Source: Pyrinomonadaceae bacterium
GTDB lineage: Bacteria > Acidobacteriota > Blastocatellia > Pyrinomonadales > Pyrinomonadaceae
Length of the DNA: 64,000 bases
Assembly (NCBI GenBank): GCA_041742785.1
Contig: JBGTOA010000032.1
Location: 6,145-70,144, forward strand
Direction of reading: 5' to 3'
In this document: positions 5,546 to 16,921 of the stretch, in pieces
Layout: the number at the start of each line of letters is the position of its first letter
Position numbering within the stretch: the first letter of the stretch is position 1
Position numbers and translations under genes: made by a program
Notes under the pieces: generated by a model
What the model saw: only the letters and a program-made list of their open reading frames with translations
What the model was told of the DNA's origin: nothing
Database searches by the model: none

Positions 5546-6060
5546 CTATTGTGAGGCGCAAGTTAAGCTGAGAGGCGTGGGCGAGCGTGGGCGACCTGAG
5601 AGACGTGAGCGAGCGTGGGCGACGAAGACGGCTCTGGCCGCCGCCGCACCGCCGGACGCGGGATCCGCCGTGACGGCAGAGACATTAAATCCGCTACCGC
5701 TGTTGCCCGACGAGAGGCAGCGGTCGAGCGTCGCTGCCACGTTTCTCTGGAAGAAAAAACCGTTGTCACCGTTCCCCTCTGAGCGCGTGTTGACCATCGA
5801 AACGCGCGCCACCGTCCCGCTGCCCGTTGGGCCGATGATGAGGATGCCGCTGCTGGCGTTATTCCTGACAATGGTCTCTTTGATGAAGATGTCTGCGCTG
5901 GCTGTGAGAAAGGCGCGGATGCCGTCGCTGGCGAAGCCGCTCACCACGCACCGCTCGACGTGCAGCACGCCGACCGCCGTGACTTCGATGCCTCTGCTGC
6001 CCGTCCCCTGCCGGTTGATGTTCAACCCCCGGCGTAGATGCCGTCCGGCGAAATGTTATG
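5546..6060 (-). pseudogene. decayed beta-helix paralog (no signal peptide, internal deletion, degenerate C-terminus)
   Basis: The 159-aa ORF matches only residues ~113-260 of paralog 4 (NINRQGTG..VTAVGVLHVERCVVSGFAS.GIRA.LTASADIFIKETIVRNNA). Homology extends upstream to ~6056 after a ~63-nt gap relative to 5041-5103, then stops. Confidence 0.75.
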
Positions 6061-8326: not shown

Positions 8327-9846
8327 ATGCCACGCGCTGTTGGCTACTGTCGGGTTTCGTCGCCGGAACAAACAAAGAACTTGAGTTTGCCCACTCAAGA
8401 GAAGGGTTGTCGTGAGTATTGCTTCAGAGAAGGTTATGAGATTGCTGGCATCTTTATTGAAGAGGGCGAATCAGCGAAGACTGCTAGTCGAACCAAACTC
8501 AAAGAGCTAATCACTTTCTGTAGCGAAAAGAAAAATCGCGTCGATGTTCTAGTTGTGAATTCCGTCAGTCGGTTCTCTAGAGATCGATATGCGCACGTCA
8601 CTGTTCGGACGCTCCTTAGCAAGCGCGGCATTACCTTGCGCTCTGCAACAGAACCTGTTGACGATTCCCCGGCAGGAAAGTTAGTTGAAGGCATTCTTTC
8701 GACCATCGCGCAGTTTGAGAATGACGAGAAAGCCGAACGGACTAAGCGAGGTATGAAGGCCGCGCTCGAGCGAGGTACTTGGCCCTTCCCGACAACTCTC
8801 GGTTCTACGAAAATTCCACAAGCTGACGGGCGCTCTAAGATCATTCAAGATCCCCAAGTTGCTCCGCTCCTAAAGCAGGCTTTTGAAATGTTTGCTACAG
8901 GACGTTATGACAGGGTTGAAATACTTCGGATCGTTTCGGCAGAAGGACTTCTGACTAAGAAGGGAAAGAGGTTAAGCCCGCAGAGTTTTTGCGGTCTGTT
9001 AAAAAATCCCTTCTATGCTGGAAAGTTGTTAGTCAAAGGTTGGGAAGTCGATGCCAAAGGCGCTTTTGAGCCAATCGTAACTGAGGAAACTTTCAGCGCT
9101 GTCCAAGCGATACTGTCGGGCAGAAGGCCGACAACGATCAAACGTCGTCGCAGTCACCCAGACTTCCCACTCAGACATTTTTTAAGTGCGGCGCGTGTGA
9201 ACGTCCACTAACATGTAGCTACTCTACAGGGCGCAATGACAAGTATGGTTACTACCATTGCGCTAATGGCTCGTGTCGCAGTCGAAGCATTCCGAGGCAA
9301 AAGCTTGAAAGCGAGTTTCTGAAGTTGATCGAACAGCTTCAACCGAAAGCAGAATACTTGATCCTTTTCGGAGAGATCGTTTTGGATGTTTGGAAGGAAA
9401 GACAAAAAGAAACGATCAAATTGGTGTCAATGTTAGAGTCTCGAGTGGCTGAATTGAAAGCCAGGCGTCAGAAGCTGATCGAAGCTTTCGTGTATCAGCA
9501 TTCAATCGAAAAATCTGTCTACCAGGAGCAACTTGAATTACTCGAGAATGAGATAGCTTTAATCGAGCTTGACGCTTACGACGCGAAGCTAGAAGAGCTG
9601 AACGTTGAAGCGGCGCTGAACTACGCGACAGAGGCTCTTCGCAATGCGGGAAGGTTTTGGATTCAATGTTCTGCGCACCAAGAGCAGAACTTTCAGCGAG
9701 TGTTATTTCCCGAAGGCTTGGTCTTCGAACGCGAGAGTTATCGAACCGCTCCAACCTGTATTGCTTTCAGTTACTTGCAGGGAATCTCAGAGGGAAAATC
9801 AAGTTTGGCGTCCCGTACGGGAGTCGAACCCGTGTCGCCGCCGTGA
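8327..9846 (+). pseudogene. large serine recombinase split over two frames at a T6 run (9178-9183)
   Basis: Frame A (8327-9211) encodes AVGYCRVSSPEQ...VLVVNSVSRFSRD (resolvase catalytic domain) plus the recombinase domain. Frame A-1, from 9181, continues FKCGACERPLTCSYSTGRNDKYGYYHCANGSC (zinc ribbon) plus a coiled coil, ending at 9846. The joined product is ~506 aa. Confidence 0.85.
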
Positions 9847-9949
9847 AAGAGAAGCAACCTATGGTAATTCAACGGAACTTAGCGGCATGGATAGCACTTT
9901 ACCGCACTTGAAGGACTCACGGGTACGCTTATTGGACCTTTTATGGACC
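9806..9949 (-). repeat. tRNA-Glu 3'-half copy (core 9806-9850) plus ~100-nt flank shared with 31986-32125
   Basis: 9806-9850 is identical to 36680-36724 of the intact tRNA-Glu (acceptor 3' strand, T arm, anticodon stem 3' strand and anticodon). The following ~100 nt align with copy 2 with few mismatches. Confidence 0.85.
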
Positions 9950-10257
9950 GCGTTAGGATCTTGCGGGTCTGCATTAATAAGAAGAGTGCTCCGAGATGCG
10001 GCACAGCCATCCGGTCCGCTATCAGCAATGCCGAGTCTGCGCGGCAGCTTTGCATCAGACTCCAGACCGGTACACGTTTTCAGGTTGGCTCAATTGCTTG
10101 ACGGCCTTTGACTCTCCAGCCTAATGTTACTGACGAACTATAACCAAACCACGGCACGCGGGATTACGGTTCTTCCCATTGAGGTTCAAACCAGTGATGT
10201 GTTAACGCAGAATGGTTTCACTGTTGCGAAACTCGTTTTCCTCACCGCACGTAGAAA

Positions 10258-11304
10258 ATGACAGACAGACTCGAAACAGTTGAGCCGGGCGCGGGCTCAC
10301 CGCCACAATCGATAAAGGAAATAGACGTGCTGTGGATCACGGCTGGCCTGGGTTGTGATGGAGATACCATCGCCATGACTGCGGCCACGCAACCCACGCT
10401 GGAAGAAGTTCTTCTGGGCGGCATCCCGGGCATTCCCAAAGTGCGTTTGCATAACCCTTTCCTCTCGTATGAAAACGGCGAGGAGTTTATGGAGTTTTTT
10501 TATCGCGCCGCCCAAGGAAAGATTGAACCCTACATTCTAGTTATCGAAGGATCGATACCTAACGAAAATAACAAAGCGGAAGGTTACTGGGCGGCCTTTG
10601 GCAGCAATAGAGAAACAGGCCAACCGATTACGACGAACGAGTGGATTGATCGGCTGGTGCCGAAAGCGTGGGCTGTGGTTGCCGCGGGAACGTGCGCCAC
10701 TTACGGCGGCATTCATGCAATGGAGGGAAACCCAACCGGCTGCATGGGTCTCGCGGACTATCTCGGTTGGAATTGGAAATCAAAGGCGGGCATACCAATC
10801 GTCTGTGTGCCCGGGTGTCCGGTTCTTCCGGACAACTTCATGGAGACGCTGTTATATCTGCTTTACCAATCAGCCGGGCGTGCGCCGATGATTCCGCTTG
10901 ACGAACAACTGCGGCCGACCTGGCTTTTTGGGCAAACGGTACACGAAGGTTGTGATCGAGGCGGCTACTACGAGCAGGCTGAGTTTGCCGAAGAATATGG
11001 CGCTCGTACTTGCATAGTTAAGCTCGGTTGTTGGGGGCCGGTGGTCCAGTGCAACGTCGGCAAGCGCGGCTGGATTAACGGCATGGGCGGCTGTCCGAAC
11101 GTTGGTGGTATTTGCATCGGTTGCACCATGCCGGGTTTCCCAGACAAGTTTATGCCGTTCATGAATCAACCGCCGGGCTCACTCTTGTCTTCGCATGCGG
11201 TGATGACTTACGGCAAAGCGATTCATGCGCTGAGAAAGTTTACCCAAGCATCACTCAACAAAGAGCCGGCCTGGCGTCGCCGCCAGGGCAATGCCAGATC
11301 GTAG
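10258..11304 (+). CDS. orphan [NiFe]-hydrogenase small-subunit paralog (HhyS-like, no Tat signal, no cognate large subunit)
   Basis: 348 aa, colinear with the small subunit at 14038-15123. All Cys motifs are retained (LGCDGD, GTCATYGG, PTGCMG, VPGCPV, HEGCDRG, KLGCWGPVVQCNV, GGCPNVGGICIGCTMPGFP). A kinase gene follows after 21 nt. Confidence 0.9.
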   Translation: MTDRLETVEPGAGSPPQSIKEIDVLWITAGLGCDGDTIAMTAATQPTLEEVLLGGIPGIPKVRLHNPFLSYENGEEFMEFFYRAAQGKIEPYILVIEGSIPNENNKAEGYWAAFGSNRETGQPITTNEWIDRLVPKAWAVVAAGTCATYGGIHAMEGNPTGCMGLADYLGWNWKSKAGIPIVCVPGCPVLPDNFMETLLYLLYQSAGRAPMIPLDEQLRPTWLFGQTVHEGCDRGGYYEQAEFAEEYGARTCIVKLGCWGPVVQCNVGKRGWINGMGGCPNVGGICIGCTMPGFPDKFMPFMNQPPGSLLSSHAVMTYGKAIHALRKFTQASLNKEPAWRRRQGNARS

Positions 11305-11325
11305 TCAACCTTCAGGACGACGACG

Positions 11326-12981
11326 ATGGGAACGCACATCTTCAATCCGCGCGAGACTGAGATTGCCGCAGACGAAACCTTAGCGTTTCGCCAGGATGCG
11401 TCGGTAACTTGGATGGAAGCTGAAAACACGCTGATCGAACTCGCCGCTGCTTTCCCCGTAGTCAATTCCCTGTCAGAACAAGGCGCTCTATCGTTACTCG
11501 GGGGCGGTAAGTCTATCGGTGTGACCCTCGCCGATGTCGACGCTCGCTATCGCACGCTGGTAGAACAAATTCCCGCGGTGGTTTTTATGGCCTTCCTCGA
11601 CAAGGGCATCGGCGAAGCATATGTCAGCCCGCAGATTGAACAGATTCTTGGATTTTCACAAGAAGAATGGCTCAACGATCCGGTGCGTTGGTATCAACAA
11701 ATACATCCGGAAGACAAGGCTCGCTGGAGCGTCGAGGCAGCGGGTTTGTTTATGTCCGGCCAACCCTTGAAGTCTCTGTATCGAGTTCTCGCTCGCGATG
11801 GACATATCGTGTGGTTTCATTGTGAAGCGAAAATGGTTCGCAATGACGAGGGCCAGCCGTGGTTTATTCATGGCGTCGCTTTTGATATATCCGAACTCAA
11901 AAGGGCGGAAGAAGCTTTGGGCAAGAGCGAGCAGATGTTGCAAGGCCTCTTCGACTTTGCTCCCGACACCGTTGCCTTGGTAAACCACGACGGCCATATC
12001 GTTCGCATCAATGCACAAGTCGAACGGATGTTTGGATACAATAGCGCAGAACTCACCGGCCAACCGATCGAGATCTTGATACCGGATCGCTTTAGATCCG
12101 GACATTTGCAACATCGTGCCGGCTACGTAGCCGAGCCGCGCACGCGCCCGATGGGCGCGGGGCTGCAACTCTTTGGCAAACGCAAAGACGGCAGCGAATT
12201 CCCGGTCGATATAATGTTAAGCCCGATGGAAGCTGAAGAGGGTTCCATGGTTATCAGTGTTATTCGCGATATTACGCGGCGGATGCAGGCTGAAGAGGCG
12301 CAGCGAGAATATTCTGACCGGCTCAAGTTTCTCTCCCGTCGCTTAATGGAGGTCCAGGAAACGGAGCGTCGCAACATAGCACTCGAATTACATGACGAGA
12401 TAGGCCAGGTACTTACTGGACTGAAACTAAGTTTGGAAATTAGTGCGCGCCGGCCGACAGACGAAATACGAGTCAGTCTCGGTAAGGCTCGCATTCTTGT
12501 GAATGAGTTGATGGCGCGAGTCCGCAAATTGTCACTCGATTTGCGGCCGGCGATGCTCGATGACCTTGGTTTGTTGCCGGCACTCTTGTGGCACTTTGAA
12601 CATTACACTGCGCAGACGCTAGTACGTGTAAACTTCAAGCATATCGGACTCGAAAAAAGAAGGTTTGGTCAGGAGGTAGAAACCGCGGCCTATCGGATAG
12701 TGCAGGAAGCGTTGACGAACGTTGCTCGCCACGCAGGGGTGCAAGAAGCGACGGTATGCCTTTCGACGCAGCAGCACACTCTGGTAATACAGGTCGCCGA
12801 TGCTGGGACTGGATTCGATGTGGAGGCGGTCCTTAACGCCAGCGAATCCAGCGGGCTCGCGGGAATGCGCGAACGCGCCATTTTGTTGGGCGGAAAACTG
12901 AACATTGAATCGCATACCGATGCAGGCACGAGTCTGCTTGCGGAACTAAGCTTGGCGGATACTCCGGCAGCCACCTCGTAG
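11326..12981 (+). CDS. soluble sensor histidine kinase, PAS-PAS-HisKA_3-HATPase_c (NarX/DesK class)
   Basis: There are two PAS-like blocks (YRTLVEQIPAVVF...DISELKRAEEAL and LFDFAPDTVALVNHDGHIVRINAQ...IRDITRRMQAEEA). The H-box is LELHDEIGQVLTGL and the ATPase block is YRIVQEALTNVARHAG. No TM segment is present. Confidence 0.9.
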   Translation: MGTHIFNPRETEIAADETLAFRQDASVTWMEAENTLIELAAAFPVVNSLSEQGALSLLGGGKSIGVTLADVDARYRTLVEQIPAVVFMAFLDKGIGEAYVSPQIEQILGFSQEEWLNDPVRWYQQIHPEDKARWSVEAAGLFMSGQPLKSLYRVLARDGHIVWFHCEAKMVRNDEGQPWFIHGVAFDISELKRAEEALGKSEQMLQGLFDFAPDTVALVNHDGHIVRINAQVERMFGYNSAELTGQPIEILIPDRFRSGHLQHRAGYVAEPRTRPMGAGLQLFGKRKDGSEFPVDIMLSPMEAEEGSMVISVIRDITRRMQAEEAQREYSDRLKFLSRRLMEVQETERRNIALELHDEIGQVLTGLKLSLEISARRPTDEIRVSLGKARILVNELMARVRKLSLDLRPAMLDDLGLLPALLWHFEHYTAQTLVRVNFKHIGLEKRRFGQEVETAAYRIVQEALTNVARHAGVQEATVCLSTQQHTLVIQVADAGTGFDVEAVLNASESSGLAGMRERAILLGGKLNIESHTDAGTSLLAELSLADTPAATS

Positions 12982-13001
12982 GACAGACATTCTTGTCTGT
13001 C
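12982..13001. repeat. GACAGACA-N4-TGTCTGTC palindrome, copy 1
   Basis: The sequence gacagaca ttct tgtctgtc starts 1 nt after the kinase stop codon (12979-12981). Confidence 0.8.
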
Positions 13002-13025
13002 ATTGGATCTGCGGAATTAGTGAGG

Positions 13026-13047
13026 GGACAGACAAGAATGTCTATCC
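13026..13047. repeat. GGACAGAC-N6-GTCTATCC imperfect palindrome, copy 2, enclosing the regulator start codon
   Basis: In ggacagac aagaat gtctatcc, the ATG at 13038 lies in the loop/3' arm and the GAGGGG Shine-Dalgarno sequence abuts the 5' arm. Confidence 0.7.
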
Positions 13048-13739
13048 TACGCTTTGGAAAGGACGAGTCGTTAGTGTCAACGTCAGAACGAACCACAGTA
13101 GTGCTCGCCGATGATCATCAGGTTGTTCGTCAGGGACTAAAAGCACTGCTCGAGGCTGAATCTGATTTACGAGTCGTGGGCGAAGCGGGCGACGGCTTGC
13201 AAGCGATTAGGCGCGTCGAGCTAACCAGTCCGCGCGTGCTCGTGCTCGATCTAATGATGCCAGGGCTCAATGGTCTCGACGTTATCCCACAGGTTAAGAA
13301 GTGTTCACCACACACGCAGATCGTCGTCCTTTCAATGTACTCTAACGAGGCTTACGTCCTTGAGGCGCTCAGCAGCGGCGCTTCGGCATACGTGTTAAAG
13401 GATTCCAGCTCGGGCGATCTGTTGCACGCGGTCCGCGAAGCGGCGGCCGGCCGGCGCTATTTGAGTCCGCCGCTGTCTGATCGCGCCATCGAGGTTTACC
13501 AGCAAAGGGCCAAGGCCACCACGCTCGATCGCTACGAAACACTCACCGCCAGAGAAAAAGAAGTCCTGCACCTCGCCGCCGAAGGCCGCACCAGCGCGGA
13601 GATTGCTGTGAGACTGGGCATCAGCGGTCGTACCGCCGAGACTCACCGCTCAAACCTCATGCACAAACTCGATCTTCACACGCAGGCGGAGCTGATCCGC
13701 TTTGCGCTCAAGCGCGGCATCGTCTCCATAGACGACTGA
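13038..13739 (+). CDS. NarL/LuxR-family response regulator (REC + HTH)
   Basis: The REC domain reads VVLADDHQVVRQGLK...VLVLDLMMPGLNG. The LuxR HTH reads LTAREKEVLHLAAEGRTSAEIAVRLGISGRTAETHRSNLMHKL. The ATG at 13038 has a GAGGGG RBS; the longer ORF starts at 12993. Confidence 0.9.
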   Translation: MSILRFGKDESLVSTSERTTVVLADDHQVVRQGLKALLEAESDLRVVGEAGDGLQAIRRVELTSPRVLVLDLMMPGLNGLDVIPQVKKCSPHTQIVVLSMYSNEAYVLEALSSGASAYVLKDSSSGDLLHAVREAAAGRRYLSPPLSDRAIEVYQQRAKATTLDRYETLTAREKEVLHLAAEGRTSAEIAVRLGISGRTAETHRSNLMHKLDLHTQAELIRFALKRGIVSIDD

Positions 13740-13774
13740 TCGCGATTCCCACACCGCAAAATAAAAAACAAACA

Positions 13775-13806
13775 AAATACGTAGCCGCGCCAAATTAAAT
13801 ACGTAG
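13775..13806 (+). promoter_or_regulatory. direct repeat AAATACGTAG x2 (22-bp register) in the hhyS upstream region; candidate regulator binding site
   Basis: aaatacgtag occurs at 13775-13784 and again at 13797-13806, followed by a partial gtctacg. It lies ~235 nt upstream of the hhyS ATG and directly downstream of the NarL-type regulator gene. Confidence 0.3.
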
Positions 13807-13992
13807 GTCTACGAATAGACACTGGCGACTGGCGGGAGAATAATTCCGGCGCTCCCTAAAGAAGCGAACAATATTTCTCTGGCCAGTAGGCGGCGTCGGG
13901 TTAGAGCGAGGTAGGTTTCTATTTCGTTTTCGAATTTCGCATTAATCGGTTTTGAGTAGGGCGGACGTTTCTGTCTGCCTGCGGGTGCCAAC

Positions 13993-14012
13993 GATAGGCA
14001 GGAATGCCTGTC
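13993..14012. repeat. GATAGGCA-N4-TGCCTGTC palindrome, copy 3
   Basis: The sequence gataggca ggaa tgcctgtc lies ~10 nt upstream of the hhyS RBS (AAAGGAG). Confidence 0.7.
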
Positions 14013-14037
14013 CTACCTAAGAAAGGAGATTAAACCT

Positions 14038-15123
14038 ATGGCGGCAGAAGCTGCCCCGTATGGTCGCAGCACGCAGCGGCCACCGGCGGTCAAAGACGTT
14101 CACATAGTTTGGATCACTGCGGGATTGGGTTGCGACGGCGATTCGGTTTCGATTACCGCGGCGACGCAGCCTAGCGTGGAAGACGTGGTAATGGGAGCCA
14201 TACCCGGACTACCCAATGTTCATCTGCACAATCCCGTATTGGCTTATGAATGCGGCGACGACTTCATGAAGTATTTCTATCAGGCCGAACAGGGTTTGAT
14301 TGATCCTTTCGTTTTGGTTGTCGAAGGTTCCATCCCCAATGAAAATCTAAGTGGCGAGGGCTACTGGGCAGCGATGGGAACCGATGCAATTTCCGGCCAA
14401 CCCATCAAGACGACGGAATGGATCGACCGCCTGGCTCCCAAAGCTTTGGCGGTCGTCGCGATCGGAACTTGTGCAACTTACGGCGGCATCCATGCGATGG
14501 AAGGCAATCCAACCGGATGCATGGGCCTCGCCGACTATCTCGGATGGGACTTCAAGACGGGCGCCGGCATTCCGATTGTCAATGTGCCTGGCTGTCCGGT
14601 GCAGCCGGATAACTTCATGGAGACGGTGCTCTACCTGCTTTACGTCGCTGCCGGCTTAGCGCCGATGATTCCACTCGACGACGCTGGACGCCCGACCTGG
14701 CTATTCGGCAAGACAGTGCACGAGGGTTGCGACCGCGGGAGCTACTACGAGCAGGGCGATTTCGCTACCGAGTATGGCTCGCCGAAGTGCATCGTGAAGT
14801 TGGGCTGCTGGGGCCCGGTGGTCAACTGCAATGTGCCGAAGCGCGGTTGGATGGCCGGAATCGGAGGTTGCCCCAATGTCGGCGGTATCTGCATTGGGTG
14901 CACGATGCCCGGGTTCCCGGACAAGTTCATGCCGTTCATGGATGAACCGCCCGGCGCCAAGATTTCGGCCTCGGCAATTGGCATCTACGGCGCTGCTATT
15001 CGCAAGCTACGAAGTATGACTAACGCAACAGTCAACAAGGAACCGAAGTGGCGACACAACCGTCCTGAACTGACTACCGGTTATCACGCGCCCGCATTGC
15101 AAAGGAGTGAGCGTCATGAGTAG
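14038..15123 (+). CDS. hhyS: [NiFe]-hydrogenase small subunit, group 1h/5 type (no twin-arginine signal)
   Basis: 361 aa with the full set of FeS-ligand Cys motifs. The N-terminus MAAEAAPYGRSTQRPPAVKD lacks RRxFxK. It overlaps the large-subunit start. Confidence 0.93.
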   Translation: MAAEAAPYGRSTQRPPAVKDVHIVWITAGLGCDGDSVSITAATQPSVEDVVMGAIPGLPNVHLHNPVLAYECGDDFMKYFYQAEQGLIDPFVLVVEGSIPNENLSGEGYWAAMGTDAISGQPIKTTEWIDRLAPKALAVVAIGTCATYGGIHAMEGNPTGCMGLADYLGWDFKTGAGIPIVNVPGCPVQPDNFMETVLYLLYVAAGLAPMIPLDDAGRPTWLFGKTVHEGCDRGSYYEQGDFATEYGSPKCIVKLGCWGPVVNCNVPKRGWMAGIGGCPNVGGICIGCTMPGFPDKFMPFMDEPPGAKISASAIGIYGAAIRKLRSMTNATVNKEPKWRHNRPELTTGYHAPALQRSERHE

Positions 15124-16921
15124 CAGCACTACGACAGTTACTAAAACACCGACCAAGCCGCGAACTCTTGTGGACATGAACTGGGATCCAATCACGCGCA
15201 TCGTAGGCAGTCTCGGTATCTACACGAAGATCGATTTCGCGAATCGCGAGGTTGCCGAGTGTTACTCGACCTCTTCGATCTTTCGCGGCTACAGCATCTT
15301 CATGAAGGGCAAAGACCCGCGCGACGCCCACTTTATCACCAGCCGCATCTGCGGCATCTGCGGCGACAATCACGCCACCTGCGCCACCTACGCGCAGAAC
15401 ATGGCGTTTGGCGTGCGACCGCCGGCGATGGCGGAGTGGATCGTCAACCTCGGCGAAGCTGCCGAGTACATGTTTGACCACAATATCTTTCAGGACAACC
15501 TGGTCGGCGTGGACTTCTGCGAGCAGATGATCAGGGAAACGAATCCGAGCGTGTGGGAAAAGGCCAAGACTTACGCAGCCCCACACGCTGCCGATCACGG
15601 CTACAAAACCATTGCCGAGATCATGACGGCGTTGAATCCGTTCAGCGGCGCGTTTTATCGTGAGACGCTGCACGTCAGCCGCTACACGCGCGAAATGTTT
15701 TGTTTGATGGAAGGTCGCCACGTTCACCCCTCAACGCTTTATCCGGGTGGCGTCGGCACTGTCCCAACGATTCAACTCTTCACTGACTATCTGGTCAGGC
15801 TCATGCGCTACTGCGAGTTTATGAAGAAGGTTGTGCCGCTGCATGACGACCTGTTTGACTTCATGTATGAAGCGTTGCCGGGCTACGAGAAGGTTGGGCA
15901 GCGTCGCATCCTGCTCGGTTGCTGGGGCTCGTATCAGGATCCAGCGGTTTGCGATTACACCTACAAGAACATGAACGAGTGGGGCAATGCGATGTACGTC
16001 ACACCCGGTGTAGTTGTAGACGGGGAATTAGTGACAACCGATCTGGTTGACATCAACCTTGGCATTCGCATCCTGCTCGGCAGTTCCTATTACGACGATT
16101 GGGACAAGTCAGAGATGTTTGTGAAGCAAGATCCGCTTGGCAATCCCGTCGATCGTCAACATCCCTGGAATCAGACTACGATTCCGAGGCCGCAGAAACG
16201 CGACTTCGATAACAATTACACCTGGGTGATGTCACCGCGCTGGTATCACAAGGACGAACCGGGCGACAAGAAATACCTCGCGCTCGACACGGGCGGTGGG
16301 CCAATTGCGCGGTTCTGGGCGACCGCCCTCGCGGGCAAGGTCGACATCGGCTACGTCAAAGCCACCGGCCATAGCGTGAAGATCTATCTGCCGAAGACAG
16401 CAATGAAGCCCGAGGTTGAGTTTGAGTGGAAGATTCCGAAGTGGAGCAATGCGATCGAACGCGATCGCGCGCGCACTTACTTCCAGGCTTACTCAGCAGC
16501 GGCGGCGCTCTATTTCGCAGAGCAGGCGCTGGCGGAACTTCACGCCGGACGAACGAAGACGTGGAACGAGTTTAAGGTGCCTGACGAAGCAATCGGTTGC
16601 GGCTTCCACGAAGCGGTGCGCGGTGTGCTTTCGCATCACGTTGTAATTCGCGATGGCAAGATCGCAAACTATCATCCGTATCCGCCGACACCCTGGAATG
16701 CGAACCCGCGCGACGTCTATGGCACGCCTGGACCATACGAGGATGCCGTGCAGAACACGCCGATCTTTGAAGAGAATGGACCGGAAAACTTCAAAGGCAT
16801 CGACATCATGCGGGCCGTGCGCAGCTTCGATCCGTGTCTGCCTTGTGGCGTGCACATGTACCTGGGCAACGGCAAGGTTCTGGAAACACACCATTCGCCG
16901 ATGTTCGGGATGGTGAAGTAG
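15116..16921 (+). CDS. hhyL: [NiFe]-hydrogenase large subunit, group 1h/5 type
   Basis: The L1 motif is TSRICGICGDNHATCA and the L2 motif is RSFDPCLPCGVH, as I recall the published group 5/1h signatures. The ATG at 15116 is 9 nt after AAGGAG; an alternative GTG is at 15107. Confidence 0.93.
   Translation: MSSSTTTVTKTPTKPRTLVDMNWDPITRIVGSLGIYTKIDFANREVAECYSTSSIFRGYSIFMKGKDPRDAHFITSRICGICGDNHATCATYAQNMAFGVRPPAMAEWIVNLGEAAEYMFDHNIFQDNLVGVDFCEQMIRETNPSVWEKAKTYAAPHAADHGYKTIAEIMTALNPFSGAFYRETLHVSRYTREMFCLMEGRHVHPSTLYPGGVGTVPTIQLFTDYLVRLMRYCEFMKKVVPLHDDLFDFMYEALPGYEKVGQRRILLGCWGSYQDPAVCDYTYKNMNEWGNAMYVTPGVVVDGELVTTDLVDINLGIRILLGSSYYDDWDKSEMFVKQDPLGNPVDRQHPWNQTTIPRPQKRDFDNNYTWVMSPRWYHKDEPGDKKYLALDTGGGPIARFWATALAGKVDIGYVKATGHSVKIYLPKTAMKPEVEFEWKIPKWSNAIERDRARTYFQAYSAAAALYFAEQALAELHAGRTKTWNEFKVPDEAIGCGFHEAVRGVLSHHVVIRDGKIANYHPYPPTPWNANPRDVYGTPGPYEDAVQNTPIFEENGPENFKGIDIMRAVRSFDPCLPCGVHMYLGNGKVLETHHSPMFGMVK

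Follow-up and report, generated by a model that had tools for sequence, protein, structure and literature searches.

An orphan group 1h hydrogenase small-subunit paralog as candidate input of a conserved kinase-regulator cassette upstream of hhySL in Acidobacteria

We analyzed a 64,000-nucleotide stretch of DNA from a Pyrinomonadaceae bacterium (contig JBGTOA010000032.1; hereafter the window), in which three genes lie directly upstream of the [NiFe] hydrogenase genes hhyS and hhyL. They code for an orphan small-subunit paralog of the group 1h hydrogenase (oSSU), a soluble sensor histidine kinase and a NarL/FixJ-type response regulator. Comparative data indicate that these genes have been conserved together with hhySL as a unit and are not a decaying remnant. 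The cassette very probably regulates the hydrogenase genes, and oSSU is probably the input of the kinase. That oSSU works with an HhyL-type large subunit, which would imply H2-dependent sensing, appears evenly poised. We propose with moderate confidence that the cassette is an H2 or redox sensor that shares HhyL, signals through the PAS_3 domain of the kinase and acts at an operator of 7-2-7 symmetry upstream of hhyS. More tentatively, it might represent a new class of 1h-derived regulatory hydrogenase, composed of an oSSU paralog that time-shares HhyL, a PAS_3-HisKA_3 kinase and a NarL-type regulator, and portable to a cluster for the group 2a hydrogenase Huc.

Conservation of the cassette was assessed in two samples. 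A scan with the kinase alignment, restricted to one genome per species, yielded 80 loci, which were then searched by tblastn with five window proteins. An oSSU-type gene was found directly 5' of the PAS_3 kinase gene in 75 of the 78 loci having upstream context, and the regulator, hhyS and hhyL normally came next. In an independent sample of metagenome contigs selected through HhyL, the order oSSU-kinase-regulator-hhyS-hhyL was present in 34 of the 41 loci with at least 5 kb of upstream sequence. An earlier reading of this DNA made from its letters (the sequence-only reading) had named lack of co-occurrence across genomes as a result that would speak against a link, and this did not occur. The loci range over Blastocatellia and Terriglobia (Acidobacteriaceae, Sulfotelmatobacter, Korobacteraceae, Bryobacterales and the isolate Edaphobacter aggregans DSM 19364). 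They include a Pyrinomonas metagenome-assembled genome (L048), and the E. aggregans locus (L079) shares both the gene order and the domain architecture of the window. Hundreds of close homologs of the kinase are labelled Pyrinomonadaceae, Blastocatellia or Acidobacteriota. The oSSU and kinase genes are closely spaced, with a gap of 21 nt in the window, a median gap of 23 nt and overlapping genes in 21 of 111 loci.

A neighbor-joining tree of 139 small subunits, a check that the sequence-only reading had suggested, split the kinase-linked copies (69 tips) cleanly from the HhyL-linked ones (66 tips). The proteobacterial and actinobacterial 1h small subunits lay outside the orphan clade in the same tree. 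Departures from the common layout downstream of the regulator were seen in L161 and L081. In metagenome contig L161, hhyS has been deleted, and its last ~40 codons, frameshifted, are left between the regulator and hhyL (5877-6007), so that oSSU is the sole small subunit remaining in the cluster. In L081, an insertion immediately 3' of the regulator (9889-15039) carries defence-like genes, one for a 1038-aa AAA/NACHT-like protein and one for a 597-aa caspase-TIR protein, and has displaced the original downstream neighbors.

The oSSU protein shares 231 of 328 residues (70%) with HhyS over an ungapped alignment, close to the two-thirds identity estimated earlier by eye. Its PF01058 and PF14720 domains, together with a match to the group 1h structure 5AA5 (HofK, chain A; E value of 1e-173), place it in the group 1h type, as had been proposed; it is 72% identical to HofK and 34% identical to HoxB. 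Among 69 orphan-type and 70 HhyS-type sequences, ten Cys residues, His229 and Asp34 were 100% conserved. The Asp34/Asp36 pair was otherwise invariant, residue 36 being Asp in the window oSSU and Asp or Glu across the orphan clade. The ten invariant Cys, His229 and the Asp34/Asp36 pair account for twelve ligands of iron-sulfur (FeS) clusters. By its sequence, oSSU thus keeps the ligands for three FeS clusters, the GCDGD proximal motif included. All the ligand motifs listed in the sequence-only reading were found, but that of PTGCMG had to be dropped from the set, as its Cys (C162) is only ~58% conserved in both paralog clades and is therefore not a cluster ligand.

The two paralogs differ in where they are constrained. 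Only a few positions separate the clades at a threshold of at least 90% conservation: oSSU sequences have I93, C183, Q264, G268, Q304 and S332, where HhyS sequences have V, N, N, P, E and T, respectively. The orphan clade is further marked by two additional Cys residues, Cys127 and Cys183, which occur together in 56 of 69 sequences; HhyS has N or T and N at these positions. Cys127 is found in 90% of orphan sequences, but the window oSSU has N127 (10636-10638) together with C183 (10804-10806). In 57 paired loci, segment 46-75 is invariant in HhyS and relaxed in oSSU; conversely, the C-terminal helix of oSSU (residues 301-333) has a column entropy of 0.28 to 0.33 in the orphan clade versus 0.73 to 0.94 in HhyS. 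This helix is a candidate docking surface for the kinase. HhyS proteins end with the tail EPKWRHxRxELTTGY and have a conserved N-terminal peptide (128 sequences), neither of which is kept in oSSU; the latter ends with EPAWRR and a short, variable basic tail without ELTTGY (101 sequences). The separate clade and the missing tail indicate that oSSU is not orthologous to the catalytic HhyS. The loops around the proximal cluster (GTCATYGGIHAMEGNPTG, EGSIPNE and VPGCP) show the same invariance in the two paralogs. The ratio of nonsynonymous to synonymous substitution rates (dN/dS) was 0.032 for oSSU, 0.026 for HhyS and 0.033 for HhyL. In most comparisons, the dN of oSSU was about equal to that of HhyS, even between classes in which the kinase is at 37% identity. 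Between the oSSU and HhyS genes of the window dS is ~2.7, a saturated value.

The kinase was predicted to be cytoplasmic, with two PAS domains and a HisKA_3 transmitter, in line with the first description of the locus. Its N-terminal amphipathic helix is joined to the PAS_3 domain by a variable linker. In 74 kinases, the proportion of columns conserved at 90% or more was 57% in PAS_3, 7% in PAS_9, 20% in the dimerization and histidine phosphotransfer domain and 12% in the catalytic domain; the LHD..GQ motif was conserved at that threshold. PAS_9 is missing in the closest relatives (L051-L054, L081 and L090). In L051-L054 and L090, the PAS_9-coding segment (11910-12316) is absent from loci otherwise 81 to 87% identical to the window, and the difference appears to be a recent domain gain or loss. 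At L018 (8081-11082), the oSSU gene overlaps by 4 nt a gene for a hybrid HisKA-HATPase-REC kinase that has only the N-terminal helix and PAS_3 in common with the window kinase. A normal kinase-regulator pair lies just 5' of it. As PAS_3 is retained both without PAS_9 and across this change of transmitter class, the invariant pairing is that of oSSU with the N-terminal helix and PAS_3. This pairing points to a putative physical interface, and PAS_3 is likely the input domain of the kinase. An AlphaFold2 model of the kinase showed, at low confidence, an isolated helix (26-40) and a disordered segment (41-67) ahead of PAS_3. The model was built from a 12-sequence alignment, with a mean predicted local distance difference test score of 65.9 and a predicted template modelling score of 0.36, and is adequate for domain boundaries only. 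A sequence search of the PDB with PAS_3 returned generic PAS/PAC and HIF PAS-B matches, with no clue to a cofactor.

The 298-nt region between the regulator and hhyS corresponds to the hhyS promoter region of the sequence-only reading. A predicted site of regulator type is present there. It consists of a half-site, ATACGTAG, followed by the 7-2-7 palindrome TACGTAG-GT-CTACGAA, which abuts the -35 box of the predicted hhyS promoter. Within the 64 kb, the palindrome has a single occurrence, at hhyS, and the 8-mer ATACGTAG occurs twice, both times within the putative operator. The sequence-only reading had proposed that the hyp genes might be controlled as well, but the operator-like site at hhyS is the only one in the window. 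The palindrome was found in 25 of 26 loci having a Blastocatellia-type regulator, whereas all 61 control regions 5' of oSSU lacked it. The k-mer CTACGTA was present in 26 of 29 loci, and CGAATAGACA was conserved in 16 to 20 of these 29. The predicted promoter implies a 5' leader of ~190 nt for hhyS (13845-14037). This leader was not conserved at the nucleotide level in relatives, and an Rfam scan of the region from 9 to 18 kb gave no match above the gathering score. In Terriglobia loci, whose regulator is ~30% identical to that of the window, another conserved palindrome, ATCGGGGAWTCCCCGAT, was found between the regulator and hhyS in about 58 to 60 of 80 loci (e.g., L036-L084 and L093-L167). 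It is probably the operator of the Terriglobia-type regulator, and a palindrome that changes along with the regulator fits a regulator-operator pairing.

The strongest argument for a large-subunit partner comes from a single acidobacterial lineage, found in at least five independently assembled records (L045, on the same contig as L173, and L170, L171, L172 and L174). The assemblies GCA_964601695.1 and GCA_035335845.1 belong to it. Its gene order is 1h-type large subunit, oSSU-clade small subunit, kinase, regulator, DUF1641, hypA, hypB and Huc-type small and large subunits. Overlaps of 4 nt link the 1h-type large subunit to oSSU and oSSU to the kinase (e.g., L172, 4588-13791). The Huc-type group 2a small subunit matches that of M. 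smegmatis Huc with an E value of 2e-189. In the 1h-type large subunit, the two NiFe-binding motifs and the C-terminal extension are intact; this protein forms a long branch basal to all acidobacterial HhyL proteins and differs from them at 23 of 353 otherwise invariant columns. The window-type operator and promoter also follow the regulator, ahead of the hyp-huc genes, in L172 and L170, with identical spacing in L172. In metagenome contigs and the protein database, no relative of the L045 large subunit closer than 80% was found outside its own cluster of 11, and the lineage is thus real but narrow. Only in this lineage was a dedicated large subunit, of the 1h type, seen with an oSSU-clade gene. 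As oSSU stands alone beside a group 1h enzyme and has its own 1h large subunit beside a group 2a enzyme, it may need a 1h large subunit and normally borrow HhyL. The sequence-only reading had pictured oSSU as an FeS antenna. Its suggestion that oSSU docks on HhyL is favored by this lineage, and the stand-alone form of the antenna becomes one option only.

In the mechanism that we favor, oSSU would be an ancient, strongly conserved HhyS paralog that has kept the three-cluster FeS wire and lost the HhyS-specific N- and C-terminal tails. Its most likely partner would be a large subunit of group 1h. In the window this would be the catalytic HhyL, whose gene lies 3.8 kb downstream, as no other large subunit is encoded there. 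With oSSU bound to HhyL, electrons from H2 oxidation would set the redox state of the oSSU clusters. The kinase, probably docked on the conserved C-terminal helix specific to the orphan, would read this state by means of its N-terminal helix and PAS_3, and its HisKA_3 transmitter would phosphorylate the NarL-type regulator. The latter would bind the TACGTAG-NN-CTACGAA palindrome and control hhySL transcription from there. We infer every physical interaction in this scheme, the direction of the signal and the stimulus sensed from gene content and conservation.

Several observations weigh against this mechanism. In a mutual information analysis of oSSU against kinase residues 1-200 (98 pairs), the top pairs resembled clade markers, an outcome confounded by phylogeny, and they showed no enrichment for the oSSU C-terminal helix or the kinase N-terminal helix. 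A Rosetta-stone search of 1.8 billion representatives returned no clean natural fusion of oSSU with the kinase. Apparent read-throughs (P0264, P0337 and P0394) were set aside as out-of-frame stretches that look like frameshift artefacts. The representative library also holds 1h-like small subunits with a C-terminal extension of ~180 aa (P0254 and P0305) and a small-subunit fragment fused to PAS-GGDEF (P0324), all unrelated to the module of the window. Residue sharing between oSSU and HhyS of the same genome, taken as a proxy for a common HhyL interface, was 0.358, compared with 0.346 after permutation (z = 2.7), a weak sign of concerted evolution that is confounded by phylogeny. The relaxed segment 46-75 could reflect a lost protein contact. 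The kinase, regulator and hhySL occur without an adjacent oSSU in L008, L009, L027, L136 and L150. The evidence from the Huc-linked loci comes from one lineage only, and its large-small subunit pair could simply be the catalytic 1h enzyme of that organism. A sensor that requires the product of its own target gene needs basal hhyL expression. H2 sensing is also not obviously useful, because the known inducer of group 1h enzymes is carbon starvation and not H2, and the atmospheric H2 level hardly varies. In E. aggregans, the transcript of the hhyS homolog was not detected although H2 was oxidized (PMC8027828). Finally, we found no published functional study of the cassette, nor any experiment that ties its genes to hydrogenase expression.

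The main rival of a sensor that shares HhyL is a stand-alone FeS sensor of redox state or O2. oSSU would hold its clusters without a large subunit and equilibrate with a redox carrier, the Hhy acceptor or O2, and the cassette would report starvation or energy status, not H2. Nearly all loci have oSSU without an accompanying large subunit, isolates carry a single large subunit, segment 46-75 is relaxed and both HhyS-specific tails are relaxed or lost, all of which agree with such a sensor. So do the proximal-cluster carboxylate, which may be Asp or Glu in oSSU, the clade-specific Cys residues at 127 and 183, and carbon limitation as the known physiological inducer. There are also precedents: NreABC with its accessory sensor and DosST/DosR, which pair PAS-HisKA_3 kinases with NarL-type regulators. 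Nevertheless, the proximal-cluster loops, which are turned toward the large subunit in every [NiFe] small subunit, do not differ in invariance between the paralogs, the overall dN of oSSU equals that of HhyS, and the translationally coupled 1h large subunit of the oSSU-clade gene beside a group 2a enzyme is hard to explain in this way. We regard stand-alone sensing as rather unlikely.

Less likely still is that oSSU is an alternative catalytic small subunit, forming a second Hhy isoform with another acceptor, or a chaperone of HhyL, with the kinase and regulator sensing something else and merely sharing the operon. The complete ligand set and the 70% identity to HhyS speak for it, as do L161, where oSSU is the only small subunit left, and the L045 lineage, where the 1h large subunit was seen with no 1h small subunit beside it other than an oSSU-clade protein. 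We do not take L161 as proof that oSSU replaces HhyS: its readable hhyS 3' remnant shows that the deletion is recent, and it may be a dead variant. An alternative subunit would also leave unexplained the tight, often overlapping junction with the kinase, the attachment of oSSU to the N-terminal helix and PAS_3 despite a change of transmitter class, the conservation of PAS_3 above that of the catalytic core and the gained constraint on the oSSU C-terminal helix, and E. aggregans oxidizes H2 without detectable oSSU transcript. The least credible explanation, to which we give almost no weight, is a remnant of a second complete hydrogenase operon that recently lost its large subunit, next to an unrelated kinase. 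The recombinase fragment and the low-GC stretch just 5' of oSSU are in line with it, and the complete pair seen with the cassette in one lineage suggests that the ancestor may have been complete. However, the arrangement occurs in more than 100 loci of two classes, the orphan clade is monophyletic, oSSU is under strong constraint (dN/dS of 0.03) with all its ligands intact, the paralogs carry no nucleotide-level trace of a recent duplication, and synteny with relatives starts at oSSU itself. Synteny, clade and constraint together dispose of the recent-deletion scenario that the sequence-only reading had raised against its own proposal. An ancient loss of a dedicated large subunit may have occurred and would be compatible with a sensor that shares HhyL.

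The features of the locus are listed in Table 1. The open reading frames, re-derived from the sequence, reproduced exactly the coordinates, the 21-nt gap and the gene order reported before.

Table 1. Features of the oSSU-kinase-regulator cassette and of hhySL in the window.
Feature	Positions	Strand	Remarks
oSSU, orphan paralog of group 1h hydrogenase small subunit, 348 aa	10258-11304	+	Cytoplasmic; PF01058, PF14720
oSSU C-terminal helix region, residues 301-333, FMNQPPGSLLSSHAVMTYGKAIHALRKFTQASL	11158-11256	+	Tighter constraint than in HhyS
Soluble sensor histidine kinase, 551 aa	11326-12981	+	N-terminal helix, PAS_3, PAS_9, HisKA_3, HATPase_c
Kinase N-terminal amphipathic helix motif, residues 26-46, AExxLxxLAxxF	11401-11463	+	Conserved in both classes
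PAS_3 domain, residues 71-190	11536-11895	+	Most conserved part of the kinase
PAS_9 domain, residues 204-320	11935-12285	+	Accessory, variably present
HisKA_3 phospho-acceptor domain (His356 in ELHDEIGQ) and HATPase_c catalytic domain	12364-12954	+	
NarL/FixJ-type response regulator, 248 aa from TTG	12993-13739	+	REC (Response_reg) and GerE helix-turn-helix
Putative operator: half-site ATACGTAG (13777-13784) and 7-2-7 palindrome TACGTAG-GT-CTACGAA (13800-13815)	13777-13815	+	
Promoter-like element for hhyS: TAGACA, 17 nt, AATAAT	13816-13844	+	Consensus match only
hhyS, catalytic small subunit	14038-15123	+	Paralog of oSSU
hhyL, [NiFe] large subunit	15107-16921	+	L1 and L2 motifs present

In the window, the oSSU gene is followed by the kinase gene and not by a co-translated large-subunit gene, the order that marks group 1h small subunits. 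As stated in the sequence-only reading, no large subunit comes after oSSU, and HhyL is the only one in the 64 kb. The oSSU and hhyS start codons are 3,780 nt apart. The kinase, with PF07730, PF02518 and a phospho-acceptor His, and the regulator, with PF00072 and PF00196, belong to the NarL/FixJ class. All matches to named NCBIfam kinase and regulator families fell under their cut-offs, the best regulator matches being NarL-like. In public gene calls, the regulator starts at ATG 13038 and has 233 aa, which is likely the true start. Identical proteins were sought in public assemblies; a record came up for the kinase and none for oSSU. No segment reaching transmembrane hydrophobicity and no twin-arginine (Tat) signal was found in oSSU, the kinase or the regulator. 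The genes 3' of hhySL form a standard group 1h cluster (NifU-Rieske, DUF5947, DUF6084, maturation protease, HypA, HypB and HypF). On the 5' side, a truncated serine recombinase of 294 aa with Resolvase and Recombinase domains is encoded at 8327-9211, in a low-GC stretch (0.48 at 8-10 kb), and a weak tmRNA-like fragment (9816-9862; E value of 0.0019, under the gathering score) lies directly 5' of oSSU. The nearest relatives are syntenic with the window at the nucleotide level only from ~10282 on, within oSSU, and do not have the recombinase-bearing low-GC flank; because synteny starts only there, this flank looks like a mobile or variable region.

In the global H2 cycle, the main sink is the oxidation of atmospheric H2 by bacteria of the soil. 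The cassette is a concrete, phylum-wide candidate sensor for the atmospheric-H2 hydrogenase of Acidobacteria. Its parts are defined: oSSU with its C-terminal helix, the helix-PAS_3 module of the kinase, a 16-bp candidate operator and a natural variant in which a large subunit is included. If subunit sharing is true, it would mean that H2 sensors have evolved from catalytic [NiFe] hydrogenases by a second, independent route, and it would represent a rare sensor that borrows the catalytic subunit of its own target enzyme. If the cassette does form a new 1h-derived regulatory class, it would be the first sensor identified as controlling the oxidation of atmospheric H2 in a dominant soil phylum. 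Its importance is tempered by the comparative nature of the support and by the fact that the arrangement was already published in 2015 and 2021.

The sequence-only reading was not aware of a described regulator of this build, and here it has to be amended. An additional hhyS located ~3,600 bp upstream was reported in strain KBS 83 and in E. aggregans (Giguere et al. 2021, ISME J, PMC8027828, supplementary information SI-2). The same study noted two small subunits in acidobacterial isolates (PMC8027828), and one large subunit per acidobacterial genome was reported by Eichorst et al. 2018. In KBS 83, a 13-fold induction of the hhyS homolog was seen in stationary phase, as determined by reverse transcription-quantitative PCR (Giguere et al. 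2021, PMC8027828). As cited in PMC8027828, Greening et al. 2015 (PNAS) mentioned a 'hhyS homolog / putative two-component sensory system' in P. methylaliphatogenes. DosR modulates Hhy in M. smegmatis, as cited in PMC13098282. The cassette of the window corresponds to the published module in the ~70% identity of the homolog, its distance of ~3.6 kb (3.78 kb here), the kinase and regulator in between and the phylum. In the literature, the module is limited to a remark on gene neighborhood and to the transcript measurement of the homolog. The window thus holds a new case of a module that the field has noticed and left uncharacterized; new here are the phylum-wide survey, the paralog clades, the selective constraint, the PAS_3 input, the candidate operator and the Huc-linked variant.

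Among known systems, the closest in outline are the group 2b circuits, HoxBC-HoxJ-HoxA of C. necator and HupUV-HupT-HupR of R. capsulatus, which also combine a hydrogenase-derived FeS protein, a soluble PAS kinase and a response regulator of uptake-hydrogenase genes. The cassette differs from them, as the sequence-only reading had maintained. It has no dedicated sensor large subunit, oSSU is of group 1h and only 34% identical to HoxB, and the window kinase has no detectable similarity to HoxJ (BLASTP E value of 2.6), with HisKA_3 and PAS_3 in place of the HisKA of HoxJ. The regulator is a REC-GerE protein of NarL type, whereas HoxA is sigma-54 dependent and NtrC-type. In the group 2b systems, the C-terminal region of the small subunit reportedly binds the PAS domain of the kinase, and such docking would parallel the oSSU-specific constraint on the C-terminal helix. 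With HofK of C. necator (5AA5), oSSU has in common the fold family, the cluster-ligand pattern including GCDGD and the lack of a Tat signal. Unlike HofK and other group 1h small subunits, it has no partner large-subunit gene after it, belongs to a separate clade and lacks EPKWRHxRxELTTGY. Records L085-L088 (C. necator pHG1 and Methylocystis, Mycobacterium and Streptomyces plasmids) carry the name 'hydrogenase expression protein HypE' for the group 1h small subunit, a systematic misannotation in RefSeq and PLSDB. NreABC of Staphylococcus and DosS/DosT-DosR likewise pair a soluble HisKA_3 kinase with a NarL-family regulator and take their input from a redox-active cofactor. In the Nre system, the operon also codes for a distinct sensor protein, NreA. 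What sets the cassette apart from these two systems is that its input protein would be a paralog of a hydrogenase small subunit, not a GAF or FeS-PAS domain.

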